Positions 3,222 to 61,455 of a stretch of 64,000 nt of DNA are shown in pieces; position 1 is the stretch's first letter, and every line of letters begins with the position of its first letter. The translations under genes were made by a program, and so were the position numbers. Where the stretch lies: contig JBGSWL010000140.1 of NCBI GenBank assembly GCA_041752455.1, forward strand, positions 45,423 through 109,422, written 5' to 3'. Source of the stretch: Roseitalea sp. GTDB lineage: Bacteria; Pseudomonadota; Alphaproteobacteria; Rhizobiales; Rhizobiaceae. Below the pieces are notes generated by a model. It searched no databases and was not told the origin of the DNA. It saw nothing but the letters and a program-made list of their open reading frames with translations.

Positions 3222-4304
3222 ATGACGCTGAATGTCGCGATCATCGGCGCCGGAATCGGTAGCCAGCATCTGGACGGCTACCTGCAACTGCCGGCGCACT
3301 ACCGCGTCGCGGTGATCTGCGATCTGGCCGAGGACAAGGCGGCGGCGCTGGCAGCGCGGGCGCCGGATGCCGTTGCGATGACCGATCTTTCCGCCGTGCT
3401 GGCCGATCCTTCGATCGACATCATCGACATCTGCCTGCCGCCGCATCTGCACGGCCCGGTCGCCCTGCAGGCCTTTGCAGCGGGCAAACATGTCATCTGC
3501 GAGAAACCGCTGGCGGGCAGCGTCATCGAAGCAGATGCGATGGCGGGGGCGGCGCTGGCCGCAGGGCGCCTTCTGGCGCCGATCTTCCAGTACCGCTACG
3601 GCCGTGGCCTTCGGCAACTTGCGGCAATGGTCGATGGGGGCATTGCCGGAAAGCCGATGGTTGCGACCATCGAGACGCACTGGAACCGCGATGCGGCCTA
3701 TTATGCGGTGCCGTGGCGCGGCAAATGGGCAAGCGAACGGGGCGGCGCCGTGCTTGGCCACGCGATCCATGCCCATGATCTGGTGACGCGGTTTTTGGGA
3801 CCGGCAACGCAGGTGATGGCGATGGCTGACACCCGCGTCAACGCCATCGAGGTCGAGGATTGTGCGGCGGTGTCCATGCGGATGGCGTCGGGTGCGCTGG
3901 TGACATCGTCGATCACGCTTGGCGCTGCGAACGACACGTCGCGCTTCCGCTTTGTTTTCGAGAACCTGACGGCTGAAAGCGGGCGCAAGCCCTATGCGCC
4001 GGGCGAGGACGCCTGGACCTTCACGGCGCGCGCTCCGTTGGCGCAGGCGACGCTCGATGCGGCGCTAGCTGAAGCCGAAACCGCCATTGCCGGTGCGCCA
4101 TCCGGTTATGCCGGCCAGTTCCTGGCGGTGGCCGAGCATCTGGCAGAGCGGCCTGCCGATCTCGTGACGGCGCAGGACGGCGTCCGTTCGCTGGAGTTTG
4201 TCGCGGCGATCTATTTGTCATCGCGCGAAGCACGCGCGGTCGATCTGCCGATGGCGCGCGACCATGCGATTTGCCGGGACTGGGTTCCGGCCCGACAGGA
4301 GTAG
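3222..4304 (+). CDS. Gfo/Idh/MocA family oxidoreductase
   Basis: NVAIIGAGIG Rossmann fold and a CEKPL motif. The ORF-track start at 3195 is TTG; the first ATG is at 3222. Confidence 0.8.
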   Translation: MTLNVAIIGAGIGSQHLDGYLQLPAHYRVAVICDLAEDKAAALAARAPDAVAMTDLSAVLADPSIDIIDICLPPHLHGPVALQAFAAGKHVICEKPLAGSVIEADAMAGAALAAGRLLAPIFQYRYGRGLRQLAAMVDGGIAGKPMVATIETHWNRDAAYYAVPWRGKWASERGGAVLGHAIHAHDLVTRFLGPATQVMAMADTRVNAIEVEDCAAVSMRMASGALVTSSITLGAANDTSRFRFVFENLTAESGRKPYAPGEDAWTFTARAPLAQATLDAALAEAETAIAGAPSGYAGQFLAVAEHLAERPADLVTAQDGVRSLEFVAAIYLSSREARAVDLPMARDHAICRDWVPARQE

Positions 4305-17057: not shown

Positions 17058-18111
17058 TCTCATCCTTGCAGCGACGGCACTCGTCGCCCTGACCTCCACT
17101 GTCCATGCCGGCGATCCTGCCGCCGGTGAAGCCGTGTTCAAGAAGTGCGCTGCCTGCCATGCGGTGGGCGAGGGCGCCAAGAACAAGGTCGGGCCGATGC
17201 TCAACGACATCATCGGCCGCACGGCCGGTACCGTCGAGGGGTTCAAGTATTCGCCGGCGATGATTGCTGCGGGCGAAGGCGGCCTCATATGGACGCCCGA
17301 AAACATCGCCGCCTACATGAAGGACCCGAAGGGCTTTGTTCCGAAGAACAGGATGTCTTTCGCCGGCCTGAAGAAGGACGAGGATATCGACAATCTGAAC
17401 GCTTATCTGGCGACATATTCCGCCGGACAGGCGTCCGAAGCGGCGCCGGTCGAAGCACCTGCTGCGGCGACAGAGACGGCTGCAGCCGCACCTGCGGCTG
17501 CTGCAACCGAAGCACCGGTCATGACCGACGTGGTGGCTTCCAAGGGCAAGTTCGGTCTCGGCCGGCAGGCAAGTGAAGACGAGATCCTGGCATGGGACGT
17601 CAAGGTCATGCCGGACGGGCGCGGCCTGCCGGACGGTTCCGGTTCGGTCGAAGACGGTGAACCGATCTTCTCGGAGAAATGCGCGGCCTGCCATGGCGAG
17701 TTCGCCGAAGGTGTCGACAACTGGCCGAAGCTGGCTGGCGGCGAAGACACGCTTGCCGATGATGATCCGCTGAAGACGGTCGGGTCTTACTGGCCCTACC
17801 TGTCGACGGTCTGGGATTACGTGCACCGGTCGATGCCGTACGGCAGCGCCGGCACACTGACCGCTGACGAGACCTACGCGATCACCGCCTACATCCTCTA
17901 CTCCAACAACCTGGTCGACGACGACTTCGTTCTGTCCAAGGAGAACTTCCTCGACGTTGAAATGCCCAATGCCGGCAACTTCGTCGTCGATGACCGGGCG
18001 GAGACCGAGTACAGCAAATGGCGTGCCGAGCCTTGCATGGAAAACTGCAAGGAGACGGTCGAAATCACCAAGAAGGCGACAGTCCTCGACGTCACCCCGG
18101 ACGGCGGCTGA
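17041..18111 (+). CDS. soxD: Diheme cytochrome c SoxD
   Basis: Two CAACH heme motifs, an Ala/Pro-rich linker, and an overlap with the soxC 3' end. Confidence 0.9.
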   Translation: MSKYRDLILAATALVALTSTVHAGDPAAGEAVFKKCAACHAVGEGAKNKVGPMLNDIIGRTAGTVEGFKYSPAMIAAGEGGLIWTPENIAAYMKDPKGFVPKNRMSFAGLKKDEDIDNLNAYLATYSAGQASEAAPVEAPAAATETAAAAPAAAATEAPVMTDVVASKGKFGLGRQASEDEILAWDVKVMPDGRGLPDGSGSVEDGEPIFSEKCAACHGEFAEGVDNWPKLAGGEDTLADDDPLKTVGSYWPYLSTVWDYVHRSMPYGSAGTLTADETYAITAYILYSNNLVDDDFVLSKENFLDVEMPNAGNFVVDDRAETEYSKWRAEPCMENCKETVEITKKATVLDVTPDGG

Positions 18112-24852: not shown

Positions 24853-24864
24853 GGATCGGAATAA

Positions 24865-24897
24865 GCCTGCCGCGGCGAGGGGGTAGCCGCGGCAGGC
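24865..24897. terminator. Perfect 12-bp GC hairpin between convergent kynU and the S8 protease gene
   Basis: GCCTGCCGCGGC, a 9-nt loop, then GCCGCGGCAGGC. The weak T tract makes efficiency uncertain. Confidence 0.5.
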
Positions 24898-24980
24898 CGT
24901 CCGGTTTGGCCCGGCAATCCATGCGACGGGGGTCAGATGTGACGGGCGCCCGGCATGTGCTCAACGCGTGGCGCCGCGCC

Positions 24981-26420
24981 TTATTCCCCGGAAACGGCAA
25001 AGACAGCGCTGGCGTCGCAAATGGCTGCGACCTTGATCAGCCCGTGGCCGAAAATGTCGTCGCGGCCGGCCTCGCCAAGGTCCTCGCTCAAGTCGGCCAG
25101 CCGCTTGGCAATCGCTTCCGGCGTGCTGTCCGGCTCGAGCGAGCGAAGAAGCCCCGCTGCTGCGGCAACGAATGGCGCAGCAAAGGAGGTGCCGGTCTTC
25201 GTACGGGCCCCGCGGATTGAAGCTGCTGCCCAGACATCGACCCCCGGCGCGGCAAAATCGATATGGCCGCCGCGTACGGCTCTGCGATAGGGATTGAGGG
25301 CGCGATCGACGCCGGTTACCGCGATCACGTCATCGTAGGCAGCCGGATAGAGCGGTTCTGACGCAGGCCCGGCGTTCCCGGCGGCGGCGACAACCACGGT
25401 CCTTGTCGAGATGATCTGCCCGATCAGGGATTCGAGGACTGCATTGTCCGGGCCTGCCAGCGACAGGTTGATGACATCGACCCCGGCTTTTGCCACCGCA
25501 TCTATGGCCAGGACGAGACTGTAGACATCGGTGCGTTCGTCACCGTTGACCGTTTCGAACGGATCGGCGGCGGTCACACTGGCCCAGGGCAAGAGGCCCG
25601 GCGTGCGGGAGGATGGCGATCCGACAAGAAGCGCCGCAACTGCGGTTCCGTGCTGGCGATCGGACGGCGCGGCAAGCCCGGACCTGTCATTTTGCACGAA
25701 CTGAAGGTCTGCATCGACCAATGCCTCATGCGCCGCATTGATGCCGGTATCGACCAGCCCGATGCGGATCGGGCGCTTGCACGCAGCCGGCAGGGCATTC
25801 GGCTCCGGCCAACCGATCAGTGAACGGTCCGCGCAGTGGTTCCCGGTGCAGGCGGTGCCCTCCGGGGCCGCGCCCGGACGGTAATAGTGGTTGAAATCGG
25901 CGGCAGCAGCCGGATTGGCGGCGCGCACGGCAGCGCGTGCGTCTTCGAGGTTGGTTCCTTGCGGAACACCAAGCCGGATGACCGATACGGAGCCGGCAGA
26001 CAGGGCGCTTCGGCTGAGAACCGTGTAGCCGTTGCCTTGAAGTGCGGAAAGTTGATCGTCTGCAAGGCCGATCGCAATGACCTGCGCCGGGGCCTGTACC
26101 GGCCGGATCACGGGCGCTGGCTGTCGCGCGGCTGTCGGCGCGGGGCGTCTTGCACCCTGCTGTTCCGCTTTCGGTTTTGGAGCGGACTGAAGCTGGCGGG
26201 GGGAAGGGCCCGACGAGATGCTTCCGCTTCCAACACTCGTCGCGGCGCCGTCATCATCGTCATCAACATCATCATCGTCATCGCCGTCATCATCATCGCC
26301 GCCGTCGTCATAATCATCCGCATGGGCAATCGCACCGTCAAAGCCGGGTAGTGAAACCGGTACCGTCACGACGGCGGCAACGAGCGTGGCGGCGAGGATA
26401 GTCTGGATGATGTTTTTCAT
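24981..26420 (-). CDS. Secreted S8 (subtilisin-like) serine peptidase with an N-terminal poly-Asp tract and propeptide-like region
   Basis: Signal peptide ending AHA. Triad contexts are LVDTGI (Asp), HGTAVA (His) and GTSFAAP (Ser). AGGAGAG SD precedes ATG 26420. Confidence 0.85.
   Translation of the reverse strand: MKNIIQTILAATLVAAVVTVPVSLPGFDGAIAHADDYDDGGDDDDGDDDDDVDDDDDGAATSVGSGSISSGPSPRQLQSAPKPKAEQQGARRPAPTAARQPAPVIRPVQAPAQVIAIGLADDQLSALQGNGYTVLSRSALSAGSVSVIRLGVPQGTNLEDARAAVRAANPAAAADFNHYYRPGAAPEGTACTGNHCADRSLIGWPEPNALPAACKRPIRIGLVDTGINAAHEALVDADLQFVQNDRSGLAAPSDRQHGTAVAALLVGSPSSRTPGLLPWASVTAADPFETVNGDERTDVYSLVLAIDAVAKAGVDVINLSLAGPDNAVLESLIGQIISTRTVVVAAAGNAGPASEPLYPAAYDDVIAVTGVDRALNPYRRAVRGGHIDFAAPGVDVWAAASIRGARTKTGTSFAAPFVAAAAGLLRSLEPDSTPEAIAKRLADLSEDLGEAGRDDIFGHGLIKVAAICDASAVFAVSGE
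26247..26318 (-). repeat. Low-complexity GAT/GAC tract encoding DDYDDGGDDDDGDDDDDVDDDDDG
   Basis: Read directly from the S8 protease translation, immediately after the predicted signal-peptide cleavage site. Confidence 0.9.
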
Positions 26421-26510
26421 GGGGCCGGCTCTCCTGCCTTGGAAAATGGGTTGGCTCCGCCAGATGTCCACTACGGGACATGCTGACATCGAAAAATCTG
26501 ATGGCGGCAC

Positions 26511-26541
26511 GGAATAAACGCTTGGGCGGGCGCGTTATTCC
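26511..26541. promoter_or_regulatory. Palindromic element containing ECF-type promoter motifs in both directions
   Basis: Sequence is GGAATAAACG-N12-CGTTATTCC. On the + strand it reads GGAATA-N16-CGTT, 43 nt before the sigma gene ATG. On the - strand it reads GGAATA-N15-CGTT, facing the S8 protease gene. Confidence 0.5.
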
Positions 26542-26578
26542 ATCATGACGGATCAAATGGCGCTGAGGGGGCGTCCTG

Positions 26579-27073
26579 ATGACTGACGACAGTTTTGCCG
26601 ATGCCGTTGTCGCGCAATTGGCGGCAATGCGTCGTTACGGATTGATGCTGTGCCGCTCGCCGGACCTCGCTGACGATCTTGTCCAGATCGCCTGCGAGAA
26701 AGCGTTTGCCAACCGCGGATCGTTCGACCCCGCGACCAATATGCGGGCCTGGCTGTTCCGGATATTGCGGAACAGTTTCATCGACTCAACGCGTCGCGGA
26801 CGGCCGCTCAAGGATGCGGTCGATATCGATGAGCAACCCGACCTGTTGTCGGTCGATGGCGTGCGCCTGCAGGAAAACCGCATGTTGGTGGCGGAGGTTT
26901 GCGATGCACTTGCCAGTCTGCCGCCGGCACAGCAGGAAATCCTGATTCTGACCTGCGTCGATGAATTGACCTATCGCGAGGCAGCGGACCTGCTCGAAAT
27001 TCCGATCGGAACGGTGATGAGCCGGTTGGCACGGGCGCGGATCGCCCTTGGCGAGCAGCTTGGAATAAACTGA
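26579..27073 (+). CDS. ECF-type RNA polymerase sigma-70 family factor
   Basis: Sigma-2 region (DLVQIACEKAF...WLFRILRNSFID) and sigma-4 region (LTYREAADLLEIPIGTVMSRLARAR), about 164 aa. Confidence 0.9.
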   Translation: MTDDSFADAVVAQLAAMRRYGLMLCRSPDLADDLVQIACEKAFANRGSFDPATNMRAWLFRILRNSFIDSTRRGRPLKDAVDIDEQPDLLSVDGVRLQENRMLVAEVCDALASLPPAQQEILILTCVDELTYREAADLLEIPIGTVMSRLARARIALGEQLGIN

Positions 27074-27112
27074 CCATGGCAGCGTTTCCATGACGACAAT
27101 GGAGCTTGGATC

Positions 27113-27901
27113 ATGACACAGACCCACACACCCGGCGGGTTCGATGACGAAACGCTGATGGCGTATGCCGACGGGCTGCTTTCGTCCGTGCGCGCGACCG
27201 AAATCGAGACTGCCGCCGCTAGTGATGCCAGTCTGCGCAAACGGATCGACGTGTTTGTCGAAACCCGCCGCAGGCTTGCCGCAGCGTTTGGCGCCGCCGA
27301 TCCGACACCTATGCCCGACGGGTTTGAAGCGCGCATCCGGGCGCTGGCGGCACCCGCTTCGGCACGCAGGGAGACTGAGGCCGTTGTCGATCTTGCTGCG
27401 GCGAGGGCCGGCCGTGCGCAGGAGTCGGTACGCAAGGGCGCTCCCTGGTTTGTCGTGCCGTTGGCGGCGTCACTGGCGCTGGTTGCCGGCGGTTTGCTCG
27501 GCCGCCTGACGGCTGTGCCCGTTCAAGGCAATCCCGTGTCGCCATTGGCGACCCTTGCCAGCGCCGATGTGTCGGTCGCGCTGTCTTCGGTTCCGGCTGG
27601 CGAGCGCATCAAACTGACGGGCGGCGACCAGTTTCAGGTGGTCTCGACCTTCCGCGATGGTGCAGGTTCGCTTTGTCGGGAATTCGAGATCGATACGGCT
27701 ACCGGGGCTGCAACGGTCGCCGTCGCCTGTCGGGCAGATGCCGTCTGGGCTGTCCAGTTTGCCGCAGCGTCTGCTACCGGCACCGACGGTTATGCGCCGG
27801 CGTCCTCGATGGAGGCGCTGGACGCATGGCTTGCGGCGACCGGGGCCGGTGCACCTCTGGACGCTGCGGCGGAAAAGACCGCCTTGCAGCAACGGCCCTG
27901 A
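27113..27901 (+). CDS. Membrane-spanning anti-sigma factor (no zinc-binding HxxxCxxC motif)
   Basis: N-terminal anti-sigma helix pattern (DDETLMAYADGLL), a single TM helix (WFVVPLAASLALVAGGLLG) and a periplasmic C-domain. It lies directly downstream of the ECF sigma gene. Confidence 0.75.
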   Translation: MTQTHTPGGFDDETLMAYADGLLSSVRATEIETAAASDASLRKRIDVFVETRRRLAAAFGAADPTPMPDGFEARIRALAAPASARRETEAVVDLAAARAGRAQESVRKGAPWFVVPLAASLALVAGGLLGRLTAVPVQGNPVSPLATLASADVSVALSSVPAGERIKLTGGDQFQVVSTFRDGAGSLCREFEIDTATGAATVAVACRADAVWAVQFAAASATGTDGYAPASSMEALDAWLAATGAGAPLDAAAEKTALQQRP

Positions 27902-27925
27902 CATGTTCGCGAAAGGACATCGGAG

Positions 27926-28645
27926 ATGAATTTTCTGGCACGCCGCCCGCAGCCCGCGCCGGTCATCCGGTTCCTGTGCCGGCCGGAGGACGAAGGCGTC
28001 ATTGCGCCACCTGTTCCCGCCAAGGCCTATCTGCCGGACTGGTTCCGCAAACTGCCAGCGGTCGATCCGGACGCCGCCGGGCTCGACAATACGGGGCTGA
28101 CCGTCAAGCGCTGCATGCCATTTCTCGATGCGATGACGACCGGATGGATCATTCCACTGGCAGCGACCGTTCGCATGCAGGTGTCGGAGAACGGCACCCG
28201 CGTGGACAGTGCCTGGGATTTTGACCGCACGCTGGTCTCCGGCCATGGTGTGCATCAGGTCAAGGGGCACCCGATGAGCGACCGTCCGCCCTGCAAGTTC
28301 CACAACTATTGGACGATCGTGACGCCGCCCGGCTGGAGTTGCCTGTTCGTCAATCCGCTGAACCGCCCCAACGGCCTGTTCGAGGTGGTGGCAGGCGTTG
28401 TTGATACGGACACCTATGCCTCCGAGATCCACTTCCCGTTTTTCGCAACCGCCGAAGACGGGCTTCACGTCATCGAAAAGGGATCACCGATCGTTCAGGT
28501 CATTCCGTTCCGGCGTGATACGGCGATGCTTGATGCCGAGATCCGCGCCGAAACCACCGACGAAAAACGTCATCGCGAGACCATTCTGCGCAACACCAAG
28601 GCAAGCGAGGGCTGGTACCGCGAGCATGCGCGCGCCAAGCGCTGA
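27926..28645 (+). CDS. Conserved-looking hypothetical protein, cytoplasmic, function unknown
   Basis: 239 aa with no signal peptide or TM helix. It starts 24 nt after the anti-sigma stop, so it is probably co-transcribed. I cannot name a domain with confidence. Confidence 0.6.
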   Translation: MNFLARRPQPAPVIRFLCRPEDEGVIAPPVPAKAYLPDWFRKLPAVDPDAAGLDNTGLTVKRCMPFLDAMTTGWIIPLAATVRMQVSENGTRVDSAWDFDRTLVSGHGVHQVKGHPMSDRPPCKFHNYWTIVTPPGWSCLFVNPLNRPNGLFEVVAGVVDTDTYASEIHFPFFATAEDGLHVIEKGSPIVQVIPFRRDTAMLDAEIRAETTDEKRHRETILRNTKASEGWYREHARAKR

Positions 28646-28674
28646 GAAGGGGCTTTCGCTGTCAAACACGTCCA

Positions 28675-28707
28675 CGAAAAAGGGCCGGTTTCCCGGCCCT
28701 TCTTTTT
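28675..28707. terminator. Bidirectional rho-independent terminator
   Basis: GAAAAA-AGGGCCGG-tttc-CCGGCCCT-TCTTTTT. There is a T-run after the stem on both strands, between convergent genes. Confidence 0.8.
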
Positions 28708-28721
28708 GCGGTCTGCCCGTC

Positions 28722-29174
28722 TCAGTTGCTCGAATTGCTGCTCGAGTTGGACGACGAGTTGCTGCTCGAGTTGGACGATGAGTTCGATGAAGAATTGCTG
28801 CTCGAGTTGGACGATGAGTTGCTGTTCGAATTCGACGACGAGTTGGAGTTTGAATTCGACGACGAGTTGCTGTTCGAATTGCTGTTGGAATTGGACGAGG
28901 AGTTCGAGTTGGCGTTGCTGTTGGAATTGGACGACGAGTTGGAGCTGGAGTTCGACGACGAATTGCTGTTGGAATTCGAGCTTCCGCCGACACCCTTGGT
29001 GCGCTTCAGCTTTTTGGTGCGGAACTGGACCTGCGCGACGTCCTGATATTCCGAAGCGACCGGGCCGGTCTGGGTCGGGGCATGTGGTGCCTTCAGGCTG
29101 GCCGAGGCTGGCACGATGGCGGTTGCCGCTGCCAACAGGCCGGCGGTCAGGGTGGTGAGATGCTTTTTCAACAT
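28722..29174 (-). CDS. Secreted Ser/Asn-repeat protein (150 aa; the C-terminal 86 aa are S/N only, with one A)
   Basis: AGGAAA SD; signal peptide MLKKHLTTLTAGLLAAATAIVPASA; basic patch RTKKLKRTKG; then (SSN/SN)n up to the stop codon. Confidence 0.7.
   Translation of the reverse strand: MLKKHLTTLTAGLLAAATAIVPASASLKAPHAPTQTGPVASEYQDVAQVQFRTKKLKRTKGVGGSSNSNSNSSSNSSSNSSSNSNSNANSNSSSNSNSNSNSNSSSNSNSNSSSNSNSNSSSNSSSNSSSNSSSNSSSNSSSNSSSNSSN
28725..28982 (-). repeat. Degenerate 6/9-bp tandem repeat (higher-order period about 60 bp) encoding the Ser/Asn tract
   Basis: Units such as ttgctgctcgagttggacga recur. Serine is written with several different codons (AGC, TCG, TCC) and Asn with AAC/AAT. Confidence 0.9.
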
Positions 29175-29221
29175 GGCGATTTCCTTTGCTGCGACCCGCA
29201 ACAAGCGCGGGACAAAAGATC

Positions 29222-29247
29222 AACGCAGCGGGCTCCTCGACTATTCC
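29222..29247 (-). promoter_or_regulatory. ECF-type promoter candidate for the Ser/Asn-repeat gene
   Basis: The minus strand reads GGAATA-N16-CGTT, about 48 nt upstream of the ATG. The hexamer, spacing and -10 are the same as upstream of the ECF sigma gene. Confidence 0.5.
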
Positions 29248-59385: not shown

Positions 59386-61455
59386 ATGACTGTGACCTGC
59401 AAGCGCGACGGCGCGACCGGCATCGTGACGATTGCCAATCCGCCGGTCAATGCGATCGGCCTTGCCGTGCGCGAAGGTCTGATGGCGGCGGTCCGCTGGG
59501 CGGAAAGCGAGCCCGGTCTGGAACGGATTGTGCTGACCGGCAGCGACAAGGTTTTTGCCGCCGGCGGCGATGCGCGCGAGTTCGACGGTCCGCCGATTGC
59601 GCCGCATCTTCCCGATGTCTGCACGGCGATCGAAACCTCCACCGTGCCGTGGATCGCTGCGGCGCAGGGCGCAGCGCTTGGCGGTGGCGCGGAACTGATG
59701 CTGGCGTGCCGCTACAGGATCGGTGCGCCGACAATGCAGTTCGGCCTGCCGGAGGTGACGCTTGGCGTGGTGCCCGGTTCCGGTGGCTCCCAGCGTATGC
59801 CGCGCCTGTGCGGTCTGGCCAAGGCGCTCGATCTGGTGACATCCGGCAAGCCATTGTCTGCCCGGGAAGCACGGGAGGCCGGGCTGATTGATGCGATTGC
59901 AGACGATCCGGTCGCCGAAGCGATGGCGATTTCGCGCGCCGATCTGGATGCGATCATCCCGGTCTCGCTGCGCCCGGCACCGGCGCTCGATGAAACCGCG
60001 CTTGCCAAGGCGCGCGCGGCTGTTGCCGCGCGCATGCGCGGGCAGGTCGCGCCGCAGCGAGCCATTGATCTGGTGGCCTTGTCGGCGACCGAGCCATTCG
60101 ACGCTGCTATGGTGCGCGAGCGGGAAACCTTCATAACCTTGCGGAACGAGCCTCAGGCGCGGGCGTTGCGCCATATCTTCTTTGCCGAGCGGGGTGCGAA
60201 GGCACCCGGCTGGCTGACAGCCGTGCCGCGCGATGTGCGCAAGTTGATTGTCGTCGGCGGCGGCACGATGGGCGCGGGGATCGCCTATGCCTTTATGAGC
60301 GCCGGGATCGCGGTGGTTCTGGTCGAGACCGACGATGCCGGTGTCGAGCGTGCGCGCAACAACGTGGAGAACATCATCGGTCAAGGCCTCAAGCGCGGGC
60401 TGCTCAGCGAAACCAACGCCGATGCCCTGCGCGCACGGCTGACGCTGACCACCGATCCGGCCGACGGTGCGGATGCCGACCTAGCGATCGAAGCGGCGTT
60501 CGAGAGCATGGACGTCAAGCGGCAGGTGTTTGCCCGCCTCGAGGGCGCGCTTTCGCCGGATGCGGTCCTCGCCACCAACACGTCCTATCTGGATATCAAT
60601 GCCATGGCGGCGGGACTGACCGATCCGTCGCGGCTGGTCGGCCTGCATTTCTTTGCGCCCGCCCACATCATGAAATTGCTGGAGATCGTGCGCGCTGCCG
60701 ACACTTCGGATGTCGCGCTGGCGACCGGGTTTGCGCTTGCAAAACGGTTGAAGAAAACGCCGGTGCTGGCCGGTGTCTGCGACGGCTTCATCGGCAACCG
60801 CATCCTTGCCCGCTACCGCGAGGCTGCCGACACGCTGTTGATGGATGGCTCGACACCGCCGGAAATCGACGAAGCGATGGTCGATTTCGGTTACGCGATG
60901 GGCCCTTACGAAGCTCAGGACCTCTCCGGTCTCGACATTGCCTTTGCCAACCGCCGCCGGCTCGACGCGACGCGCGATCCGCGCCGCCGTTACATCCCGA
61001 TTGCCGACCGCATGGTGGAACTCGGCAAACTCGGCAAGAAGACCGGCGCTGGCTGGTACCGTTATCCCGGCGGCAACGGCAAGGTCGAAGACCCGATTGT
61101 CGCCGATCTGTGCATCGAGGAAGCTTATTTCGCCAAGGTCACACGGCGCGACATCCCCGCTGACGAGATCCGCCACCGGCTGCTGCTGGCGATGATCAAC
61201 GAAGCCGCCGACATTCTCGCCGAAGGCATTGCCGCCTCGGCTGCCGACATCGATCTGGTGACGGTTGCCGGATACGGGTTTCCCCGTTGGCGCGGCGGCC
61301 TGATGCACCACGCCGATGCCATCGGCGCAGCATCGATCCTTGCCAGTCTGCGGGTTCTGGAGACGGAGGACCCGATTGTCTGGCGGCCGAGCGCGGCCAT
61401 CATTGCTTGTGCCGAGCGCGGCATCACCTTTGCCGATTACCGCCGGGACGCCTGA
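59386..61455 (+). CDS. Fused enoyl-CoA hydratase / 3-hydroxyacyl-CoA dehydrogenase (FadB/FadJ-like)
   Basis: N-terminal crotonase domain (AAGGDAREF...GGGAEL) and an NAD Rossmann fold ([12 protein letters not shown]) with a 3HCDH C-domain. The start (TTG 59353, GTG 59371 or ATG 59386) is uncertain. Confidence 0.85.

Follow-up and report, generated by a model that had tools for sequence, protein, structure and literature searches.

The stretch of DNA analysed here (the window) comprises 64,000 nucleotides of contig JBGSWL010000140.1 of Roseitalea sp. (assembly GCA_041752455.1). Between positions 24981 and 29247 it carries five genes, which code for a secreted S8 (subtilase) protease, an extracytoplasmic function (ECF) sigma factor, a membrane anti-sigma factor, a cytoplasmic protein of family DUF6065 and a predicted secreted protein dominated by serine and asparagine (Ser/Asn). 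Sequence comparison indicates that the module is the counterpart of the RpoE6/EcfR6 regulon on plasmid pSymA of Sinorhizobium meliloti. The five genes, the Ser/Asn repeat, a shared hairpin and GGAATA-N15/16-CGTT sites all lie where an earlier reading of the bare sequence (the original prediction) had placed them. Shine-Dalgarno-like sequences precede all five genes. The features are as follows.

24981-26420, minus strand: secreted S8 (subtilase) protease, 479 aa (Pfam Peptidase_S8, E 1e-30, full profile)
26511-26541, both strands: paired divergent putative ECF promoters, overlapping and palindromic (motif scan)
26579-27073, plus strand: ECF sigma factor, RpoE6-type (matches to Sigma70_r2, Sigma70_r4_2 and PhyR_sigma2)
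27062-27086, plus strand: putative internal ECF promoter at the sigma stop codon (motif scan)
27113-27901, plus strand: membrane anti-sigma factor, EcfR6-like, 262 aa (weak match to an anti-sigma hidden Markov model, hydropathy, ortholog alignment)
27926-28645, plus strand: DUF6065 protein, cytoplasmic, predicted dUTPase-like fold (PF19541, predicted structure)
28680-28701, called on the plus strand: terminator hairpin between the convergent DUF6065 and Ser/Asn genes
28722-29174, minus strand: Ser/Asn repeat protein, predicted to be Sec-exported, 150 aa (signal peptide, composition)
29222-29247, minus strand: putative ECF promoter of the Ser/Asn gene, GGAATA-N16-CGTT (motif scan)
24860-24987, minus strand: orphan putative ECF promoter (24987-24963) and a possible hairpin RNA of about 95 nt (motif scan, RNA fold; membership of the module tentative)

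The hairpin had been described as a bidirectional terminator. It is a strong hairpin with a T-run after it on the plus strand; on the minus strand only 4 of 8 bases are T, and a bidirectional function is plausible but less well supported.

Promoter sites in the window and in related genomes

The window was scanned on both strands for GGAATA-N15-17-CGTT, with 100 shuffled sequences as the control. Five matches were found against 0.06 expected, all within the module, and none of the 100 shuffles reached five. Three are the sites already named in the original prediction. The N16 site at 26511-26536 (plus strand) precedes the sigma gene and is overlapped palindromically by the N15 site at 26517-26541 (minus strand), which faces the protease gene; a second N16 site, at 29222-29247 (minus strand), lies 48 nt upstream of the start codon of the Ser/Asn gene. 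The other two are additions. One, of the N15-17 class at 27062-27086 (plus strand), overlaps the stop codon of the sigma gene and lies 27 nt before the start codon of the anti-sigma gene, which itself begins 39 nt past the sigma stop. The second (GGAATA-N15-CGTT, 24963-24987, minus strand) overlaps the stop codon of the protease gene. The DUF6065 gene follows the anti-sigma gene after a 24-nt gap and has no promoter of its own in the window, where the internal site would drive both the anti-sigma and the DUF6065 genes.

The comparative set consists of 80 loci, one genome per species, picked by their DUF6065 orthologs and drawn from Rhodobacterales, Rhizobiaceae, Aminobacter, Mesorhizobium, Salinarimonas, Stappiaceae and others. 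Across these loci the motif is found before the DUF6065, Ser/Asn, protease, sigma and anti-sigma genes. In the 1.15 Mb of related DNA surveyed, GGAATA-N15-CGTT occurs 184 times, with N14 once, N16 17 times and N17 once; GGAAT[C/G/T]-N15-CGTT occurs 13 times and the EcfG-type GGAAC-N16-CGTT 15 times. The comparison defines a very clean extended consensus, GGAATA(A/G)a-N13-CGTTnT(c/t)C. Most sites lie directly upstream of module genes: DUF6065 in 47 loci, Ser/Asn in 55, anti-sigma in 28, protease in 22 and sigma in 19. The site at the sigma stop has the same placement upstream of 28 of the 43 anti-sigma genes found, and a same-strand motif precedes the Ser/Asn gene in 55 of 69 loci, at a median distance of 48 nt. 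Separate divergent sites of the same kind are present in four loci (L017, L018, L025 and L052). Where no sigma gene is present locally, the motif still stands before both the DUF6065 and the Ser/Asn genes.

The genes themselves also stay together. About 50 of the 80 loci have the protease, sigma and anti-sigma orthologs no more than 8 kb away from DUF6065, with at least four different gene orders among them, and the genes are syntenic on S. meliloti pSymA as well. A linkage kept through rearrangement is good evidence of a functional tie. The sigma and S8 genes are neighbours in every locus whose contig permits the check. The tightest linkage of the regulon is another one, that of DUF6065 with a gene for a signal peptide followed by (NSS)n and poly-Asp, which holds with or without a sigma gene nearby. 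Such a gene, mostly ending in poly-Asp, directly adjoins DUF6065 in 72 loci. In five further loci it is truncated, masked or split, which brings the count to 77 of 78 informative loci. Another two contigs stop before the place where the gene would be seen, and only L016 is clearly without it. In about 25 loci the pair persists with no sigma or protease gene nearby. The repeat genes were located by a composition scan, as tblastn with the Ser/Asn protein gives nothing owing to its composition.

The sigma/anti-sigma pair and its S. meliloti counterpart

The sigma factor consists of regions 2 and 4 only, the architecture of the ECF family, with Sigma70_r2, Sigma70_r4_2 and TIGR02937 (sigma70-ECF) above cut-off. 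It is 48% identical to S. meliloti RpoE6. Its partner is 39% identical to EcfR6 and is made up of an N-terminal, sigma-binding part with a weak domain match (the ortholog in L001 gives a weak zf-HC2 match), a single hydrophobic segment at residues 112-132 that would cross the membrane, and a periplasmic domain. Two periplasmic cysteines, C188 (27674-27676) and C206 (27728-27730), are invariant in 39 of 39 orthologs, with a CREFE motif. The pair might be linked in a disulfide, or might serve to sense redox state or thiols.

RpoE6 (SMa0143) and EcfR6 (SMa0144) were classed in group ECF26 by Lang et al. in 2018 (PMC6180224), and a later classification has kept RpoE6 there (PMC10880074). The former study describes a sigma gene divergent from a gene for a serine protease (SMa0142 in S. 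meliloti) as a widely conserved arrangement in ECF26. Overexpression of RpoE6 raised SMa0142 by 4.7 log2 units, ecfR6 by 3.6, SMa0146 by 2.3 and SMa0148, the strongest target, by 6.5. Transcription start sites were mapped behind GGAATA..CGTT sequences, among them an RpoE6-dependent ecfR6 promoter within the open reading frame (ORF) of rpoE6. The authors found neither the function of RpoE6 nor the stress that induces it (PMC6180224).

We fetched the pSymA region and mapped it against the window genes and the published promoter strings. The strings for SMa0148 and SMa0142 sit exactly before the DUF6065 and S8 genes, and SMa0148 is the DUF6065 gene. The same five genes are present from SMa0142 to SMa0148, with identities to the window of 48% for the S8 protease, 48% for the sigma factor, 39% for the anti-sigma factor and 66.5% for DUF6065. 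In S. meliloti GGAATA-N15-CGTT precedes the protease, anti-sigma (inside the sigma ORF) and repeat genes, which have N15 or N16 sites of this kind in the window as well; there it also precedes the DUF6065 gene. The gene order differs. On pSymA, DUF6065 faces the sigma/anti-sigma pair in a convergent arrangement, and the protease gene is divergent from the sigma gene. DUF6065 has its own promoter there and none in the window. The rpoE6 gene has no ECF-type promoter, whereas the window sigma gene has one (N16), overlapped with the protease promoter. S. meliloti also has an additional target, SMa0139 (a glyoxalase). The poly-Asp tail of the repeat protein is missing in both S. meliloti and the window and is present in most other relatives.

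By its orthology to RpoE6 (48% identity and five-gene synteny), we assign the window sigma factor to ECF26. The promoter element given for the group in PMC6180224, a -35 of GGAATA with a -10 containing GT, is found here with CGTT as the -10, and the window sigma gene is divergent from a serine protease gene. The module is the counterpart of the pSymA RpoE6/EcfR6 regulon and is not new. This overturns the statement in the original prediction that no characterised system has this composition (PMC6180224).

Two further ECF26 factors of S. meliloti, RpoE1 and RpoE4, share the anti-sigma architecture (N-terminal domain, one transmembrane segment, periplasmic domain) and a related -35 element, GGAATA. 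They differ in the -10 element (CGTC rather than CGTT) and in their targets, which are sulfite dehydrogenase genes. RpoE1 and RpoE4 respond to sulfite and rpoE6 reportedly does not (PMC3511301). A relaxed ECF26 pattern, GGAAT-N15-18-GTC, shows no enrichment in the window (7 matches against 8.7 expected), and with this pattern no link of the module to the neighbouring sulfur genes in the window was found.

The three output proteins

The protease has a signal peptide and intact catalytic motifs: VDTGI (223), HGTAVA (257) and GTSFAAP (410), with the triad D223/H257/S412 in subtilase order, and the oxyanion Asn in AAGNAG (346). A 24-residue, almost pure Asp tract occupies residues 35-58 (26318-26247), and a poly-Asp tract recurs in 39 of 55 protease orthologs. 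Orthologs with 39-51% identity adjoin the sigma gene in 53 of the 80 loci. The start codon is likely the ATG at 26420 rather than the GTG at 26510 that had been offered as an alternative, because the 479-aa form is the protein on record and a gene starting at the GTG would run through the promoter region.

The Ser/Asn protein has a signal peptide (residues 1-25), a basic stretch and then 86 residues (28982-28725), of which 56 are Ser, 29 are Asn and one is Ala, in a pattern of N-S and N-S-S-S units. An AGGAAA resembling a Shine-Dalgarno sequence precedes its ATG. The repeat is probably disordered. In being low-complexity, Ser-dominated and secreted, the protein resembles the serine-rich repeat proteins of Gram-positive bacteria, including the SD repeats of ClfB, to which it gives weak, composition-driven matches. 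It differs from them in having no LPXTG anchor or ligand-binding domain, in the small size of the family (80-330 aa), in its N-S / N-S-S-S repeat unit and in its Gram-negative host and ECF control. An identification as a Gram-positive serine-rich adhesin does not fit, as the 150 residues hold only the signal peptide, basic stretch and repeat and the NCBIfam matches are far below cut-off. Assemblies tend to fail inside the repeat. Contigs end there in L004, L011, L019, L025, L040 and L043, an N run interrupts it in L007 and the ORF is split in L050, so the repeat length is unreliable in draft genomes.

The S. meliloti annotation puts the repeat gene on the wrong strand. Between DUF6065 and ecfR6, pSymA contains a 160-aa ORF whose N-terminus resembles a signal peptide and which has an (NSS)n repeat and its own motif. 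The annotated gene at this place, SMa0146, runs on the opposite strand, and its 5'-RACE (rapid amplification of cDNA ends) primers and the prefix of its array probe set correspond to the strand of SMa0148, opposite to the Ser/Asn ORF. The 2.3 log2 signal reported for SMa0146 is therefore probably read-through from SMa0148 and not expression of the repeat gene. Opposite-strand calls of the repeat gene occur at L083 6899-7381 (minus strand; S. meliloti pSymA), L084 5963-6352 (plus strand), L001 6841-7335 and L002 6855-7442. The products of such calls, which include SMa0146, the call by the PGAP annotation pipeline in strain ml47 and the automatic calls in L001 and L002, are rich in Glu and Leu or in Cys, Ser and Trp.

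The third output, the product of the gene at 27926, had been listed as an unknown protein. It belongs to DUF6065 (PF19541), and its orthologs are 66-79% identical across Rhodobacterales and Hyphomicrobiales. A literature search found no paper mentioning DUF6065. An AlphaFold2 model built from a shallow alignment of close orthologs reached a predicted local distance difference test (pLDDT) score of 43 and was discarded; a diverse alignment was needed and gave 95.8. The 50 best Foldseek matches listed from the PDB are all dUTPases or dCTP deaminase (E about 1e-4, target-normalised TM-score 0.5-0.72, 10-16% identity), and the model thus assigns the protein a dUTPase-like fold. A sequence-profile search of the PDB with DUF6065 gave nothing significant. 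In a profile alignment to Escherichia coli Dut, GVVDTDTY (28394-28417) falls on motif III and PIVQVIPF (28487-28510) on motif IV, at a probability of 7.8% and with a Dut sequence entered by hand. For PFLDAM and LNRPNG, the likeness to motifs I and II is one seen by eye only. Relative to the trimeric dUTPases and dCTP deaminase, whose fold the prediction matches, DUF6065 has about 90 extra residues and, by inspection, no C-terminal glycine-rich motif V. Given the predicted fold, DUF6065 is probably nucleotide-binding.

The nearest relatives outside the alphaproteobacterial clade are phage proteins (phrog_7084, E 1e-52; BFVD, E 3e-19). Relatives with 37-54% identity are found in the phage-like metagenomic contigs L086, L087, L090 and L092, next to genes for thymidylate synthase, a YfbR-like nucleotidase, DNA polymerase A, RNase T and endonuclease VII. 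These nucleotide-metabolism neighbours, together with the predicted fold, make a nucleotide-handling role plausible. By its sequence relationships, the cellular clade looks like a domesticated phage gene.

Regulon model and alternatives

The five genes very probably form a local regulon of the ECF26 sigma factor, as judged from the conserved sites and the S. meliloti counterpart. By analogy with its family, the single-pass anti-sigma factor would hold the sigma factor inactive. An extracytoplasmic cue would act on its periplasmic domain, with the two invariant cysteines, and release the sigma factor, which would then direct RNA polymerase to the GGAATA-N15/16-CGTT promoters. For this last step overexpression and start-site data exist in S. 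meliloti, and motif conservation points to the same step here. The promoter of the sigma operon would provide positive autoregulation. The site at the sigma stop would drive the anti-sigma and DUF6065 genes and so combine negative feedback with output. The predicted outputs are the Sec-exported S8 protease with its poly-Asp tract, the Sec-exported (NSS)n protein and cytoplasmic DUF6065. The original prediction had tied the protease gene, the sigma operon and the Ser/Asn gene into one putative regulon, and the idea gains strong support from a motif conserved before each gene in dozens of genomes and several gene orders and from the induction of the protease gene, ecfR6 and SMa0148 on RpoE6 overexpression. 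Of the outcomes that it had named as refuting it, none was observed: other genomes show synteny of the genes, the motif is distinct from the EcfG consensus, and the S. meliloti counterpart shows induction.

Several points weigh against this model. The evidence of sigma-dependent transcription comes from S. meliloti, and the only route by which the sigma factor is placed in ECF26 is its orthology to RpoE6. The motif stands upstream of only 19 of 51 sigma genes, and S. meliloti rpoE6 has an RpoD/RpoH-type promoter, so autoregulation is not universal. Two of the main window sites carry the minority N16 spacing (17 cases in the relatives against 184 of N15). Since the SMa0146 probes and primers are antisense to the Ser/Asn gene, the published induction does not cover that gene.

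The sites might instead be general-stress promoters (EcfG, group ECF15), with the five genes drawn into a genome-wide stress regulon, a danger that the original prediction had itself pointed out. The geometry of a 5-mer, 16 nt and CGTT is that of the EcfG consensus GGAAC-N16-CGTT, the sigma factor has a related sigma2 sequence and matches the PhyR_sigma2 model, and in S. meliloti 67% of RpoE6 targets are shared with the RpoE2 regulon, the authors remarking on the similarity of the motifs (PMC6180224). The bases that separate the two motifs are, however, constant: all window sites have T, not C, at position 5 and A at position 6, and the relatives strongly prefer the GGAATA form to the other GGAAT variants and to the EcfG form (184, 13 and 15 sites, as given above). 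The lone EcfG-type site of the 64-kb window (60143-60167, plus strand) is far from the module. The partner of the sigma factor is a 262-aa membrane protein rather than NepR, and no PhyR or NepR gene, and thus no PhyR partner switch, was found in the locus, to which the PhyR search was limited. The regulon is also small and local, unlike that of EcfG. We consider a general-stress assignment very unlikely. An anti-phage or mobile-element function, with the phage-derived dUTPase-fold protein and the subtilase as effectors, has a similarly slim chance. It would fit the phage relatives of DUF6065, which lie in nucleotide-metabolism and replication modules, the weak IetS/IteS matches of the protease and the plasmid location of the module in Rhizobiaceae. 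Against this, the PADLOC matches of the protease reflect generic subtilase likeness far below cut-off, and the other four proteins of the module match no PADLOC model. The gene set, complete with a sigma factor of its own, is also stably kept in two orders, unlike typical defence islands. A known defence system is accordingly not supported.

A third alternative concerns the Ser/Asn gene. If its frame were not a gene, the product would be the Glu/Leu-rich ORF of the opposite strand, or the repeat would be non-coding DNA. This is what the annotations in strain ml47 (PGAP), in L001 and L002 and in the original SMa0146 entry would favour, and the protein collection, in which the other four module proteins are present, lacks the window Ser/Asn protein in each of the four forms that were looked up. 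The Ser/Asn frame nevertheless opens with a typical signal peptide in 69 loci, and the non-repeat parts of these 69 genes have GC contents of 0.59/0.52/0.75 at codon positions 1/2/3. The use of five different codons for serine speaks for selection on the Ser/Asn protein. The conserved ECF promoter lies about 48 nt upstream on the Ser/Asn strand, be the gene convergent or co-directional with DUF6065, and the annotation of Agrobacterium tumefaciens Ach5 uses the Ser/Asn frame. We give the non-coding or opposite-strand explanation almost no credence and retain the Ser/Asn ORF as a gene of the regulon.

As to function, we lean weakly towards an accessory response of the envelope or the extracellular space, with the protease and the repeat protein both at work outside the cytoplasm. 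Processing of the repeat protein by the protease and feedback on the anti-sigma factor, two roles offered in the original prediction, are speculative. A more specific reading is possible, and we regard it as doubtful. Here DUF6065, as a domesticated phage protein of dUTPase fold, and the exported (NSS)n-polyAsp protein would form a coupled two-gene unit in an undescribed extracytoplasmic process, such as a surface or matrix layer that depends on calcium or a reaction of the envelope to phage, with the repeat protein as its hidden, systematically mis-annotated part. The reading draws on the adjacency of the two genes, each behind its own GGAATA-N15-CGTT promoter, on poly-Asp tracts and RTX proteins as pointers to calcium, and on SLC13 permease and glycerate kinase genes as further members in three families.

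RpoE6-type ECF26 regulons are widespread in Rhodobacterales and Hyphomicrobiales and, in rhizobia and agrobacteria, are often carried on symbiotic or accessory plasmids. The window adds another member to them and not a new kind of system. New here are the DUF6065-repeat linkage, the wrong-strand annotation, the predicted fold and phage relatives of DUF6065, the extended regulon and the promoter consensus. The best-conserved outputs are a protein of predicted dUTPase fold and apparent phage ancestry and a homopolymer-like secreted Ser/Asn protein, the latter missed in model-organism assays owing to the wrong-strand annotation.

Relatives carry additional genes behind the motif. It stands upstream of a gene for an RTX (HemolysinCabind) calcium-binding repeat protein in 12 Rhodobacterales loci (for example L003 6807-7882 and L052 3859-4939), and before genes for an SLC13-family permease and a glycerate kinase in Rhizobiaceae, Stappiaceae and one metagenome-assembled genome of Paracoccaceae (L074 9278-12203, L030 112-3394 and L027 5571-8709). 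The permease and the kinase appear to be recurrent extra regulon members. No RTX, SLC13 permease or glycerate kinase genes were found in the window. Taken with the poly-Asp of protease and repeat protein, the RTX proteins hint at a calcium theme, and all three kinds of gene could guide phenotype screens.

Some minor observations concern single loci. Downstream of the orphan site, about 95 nt (24860-24957, minus strand) fold as two hairpins with C-rich loops plus a terminator-like stem (z-score -4.8). The match of this region to ar7, an alphaproteobacterial small RNA in Rfam, is below threshold (28.6 bits against a cut-off of 60), and such a match was absent from five related loci. The region could encode a small RNA that belongs to the regulon, could be a relic, or could have arisen by chance. 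A single GGAATA-N14-CGTT site lies at 17398-17421 (minus strand), distant from the module. In megablast against plasmids, matches were obtained only at the flanking pca genes, at about 75%. Pseudotabrizicola algicola (L052) contains a terC RNA motif at 3657-3709 (minus strand; 51 bits, above the gathering score). The motif is just downstream of the RTX regulon gene, and a small ORF and a gene for a Na/Ca exchanger follow downstream of it.

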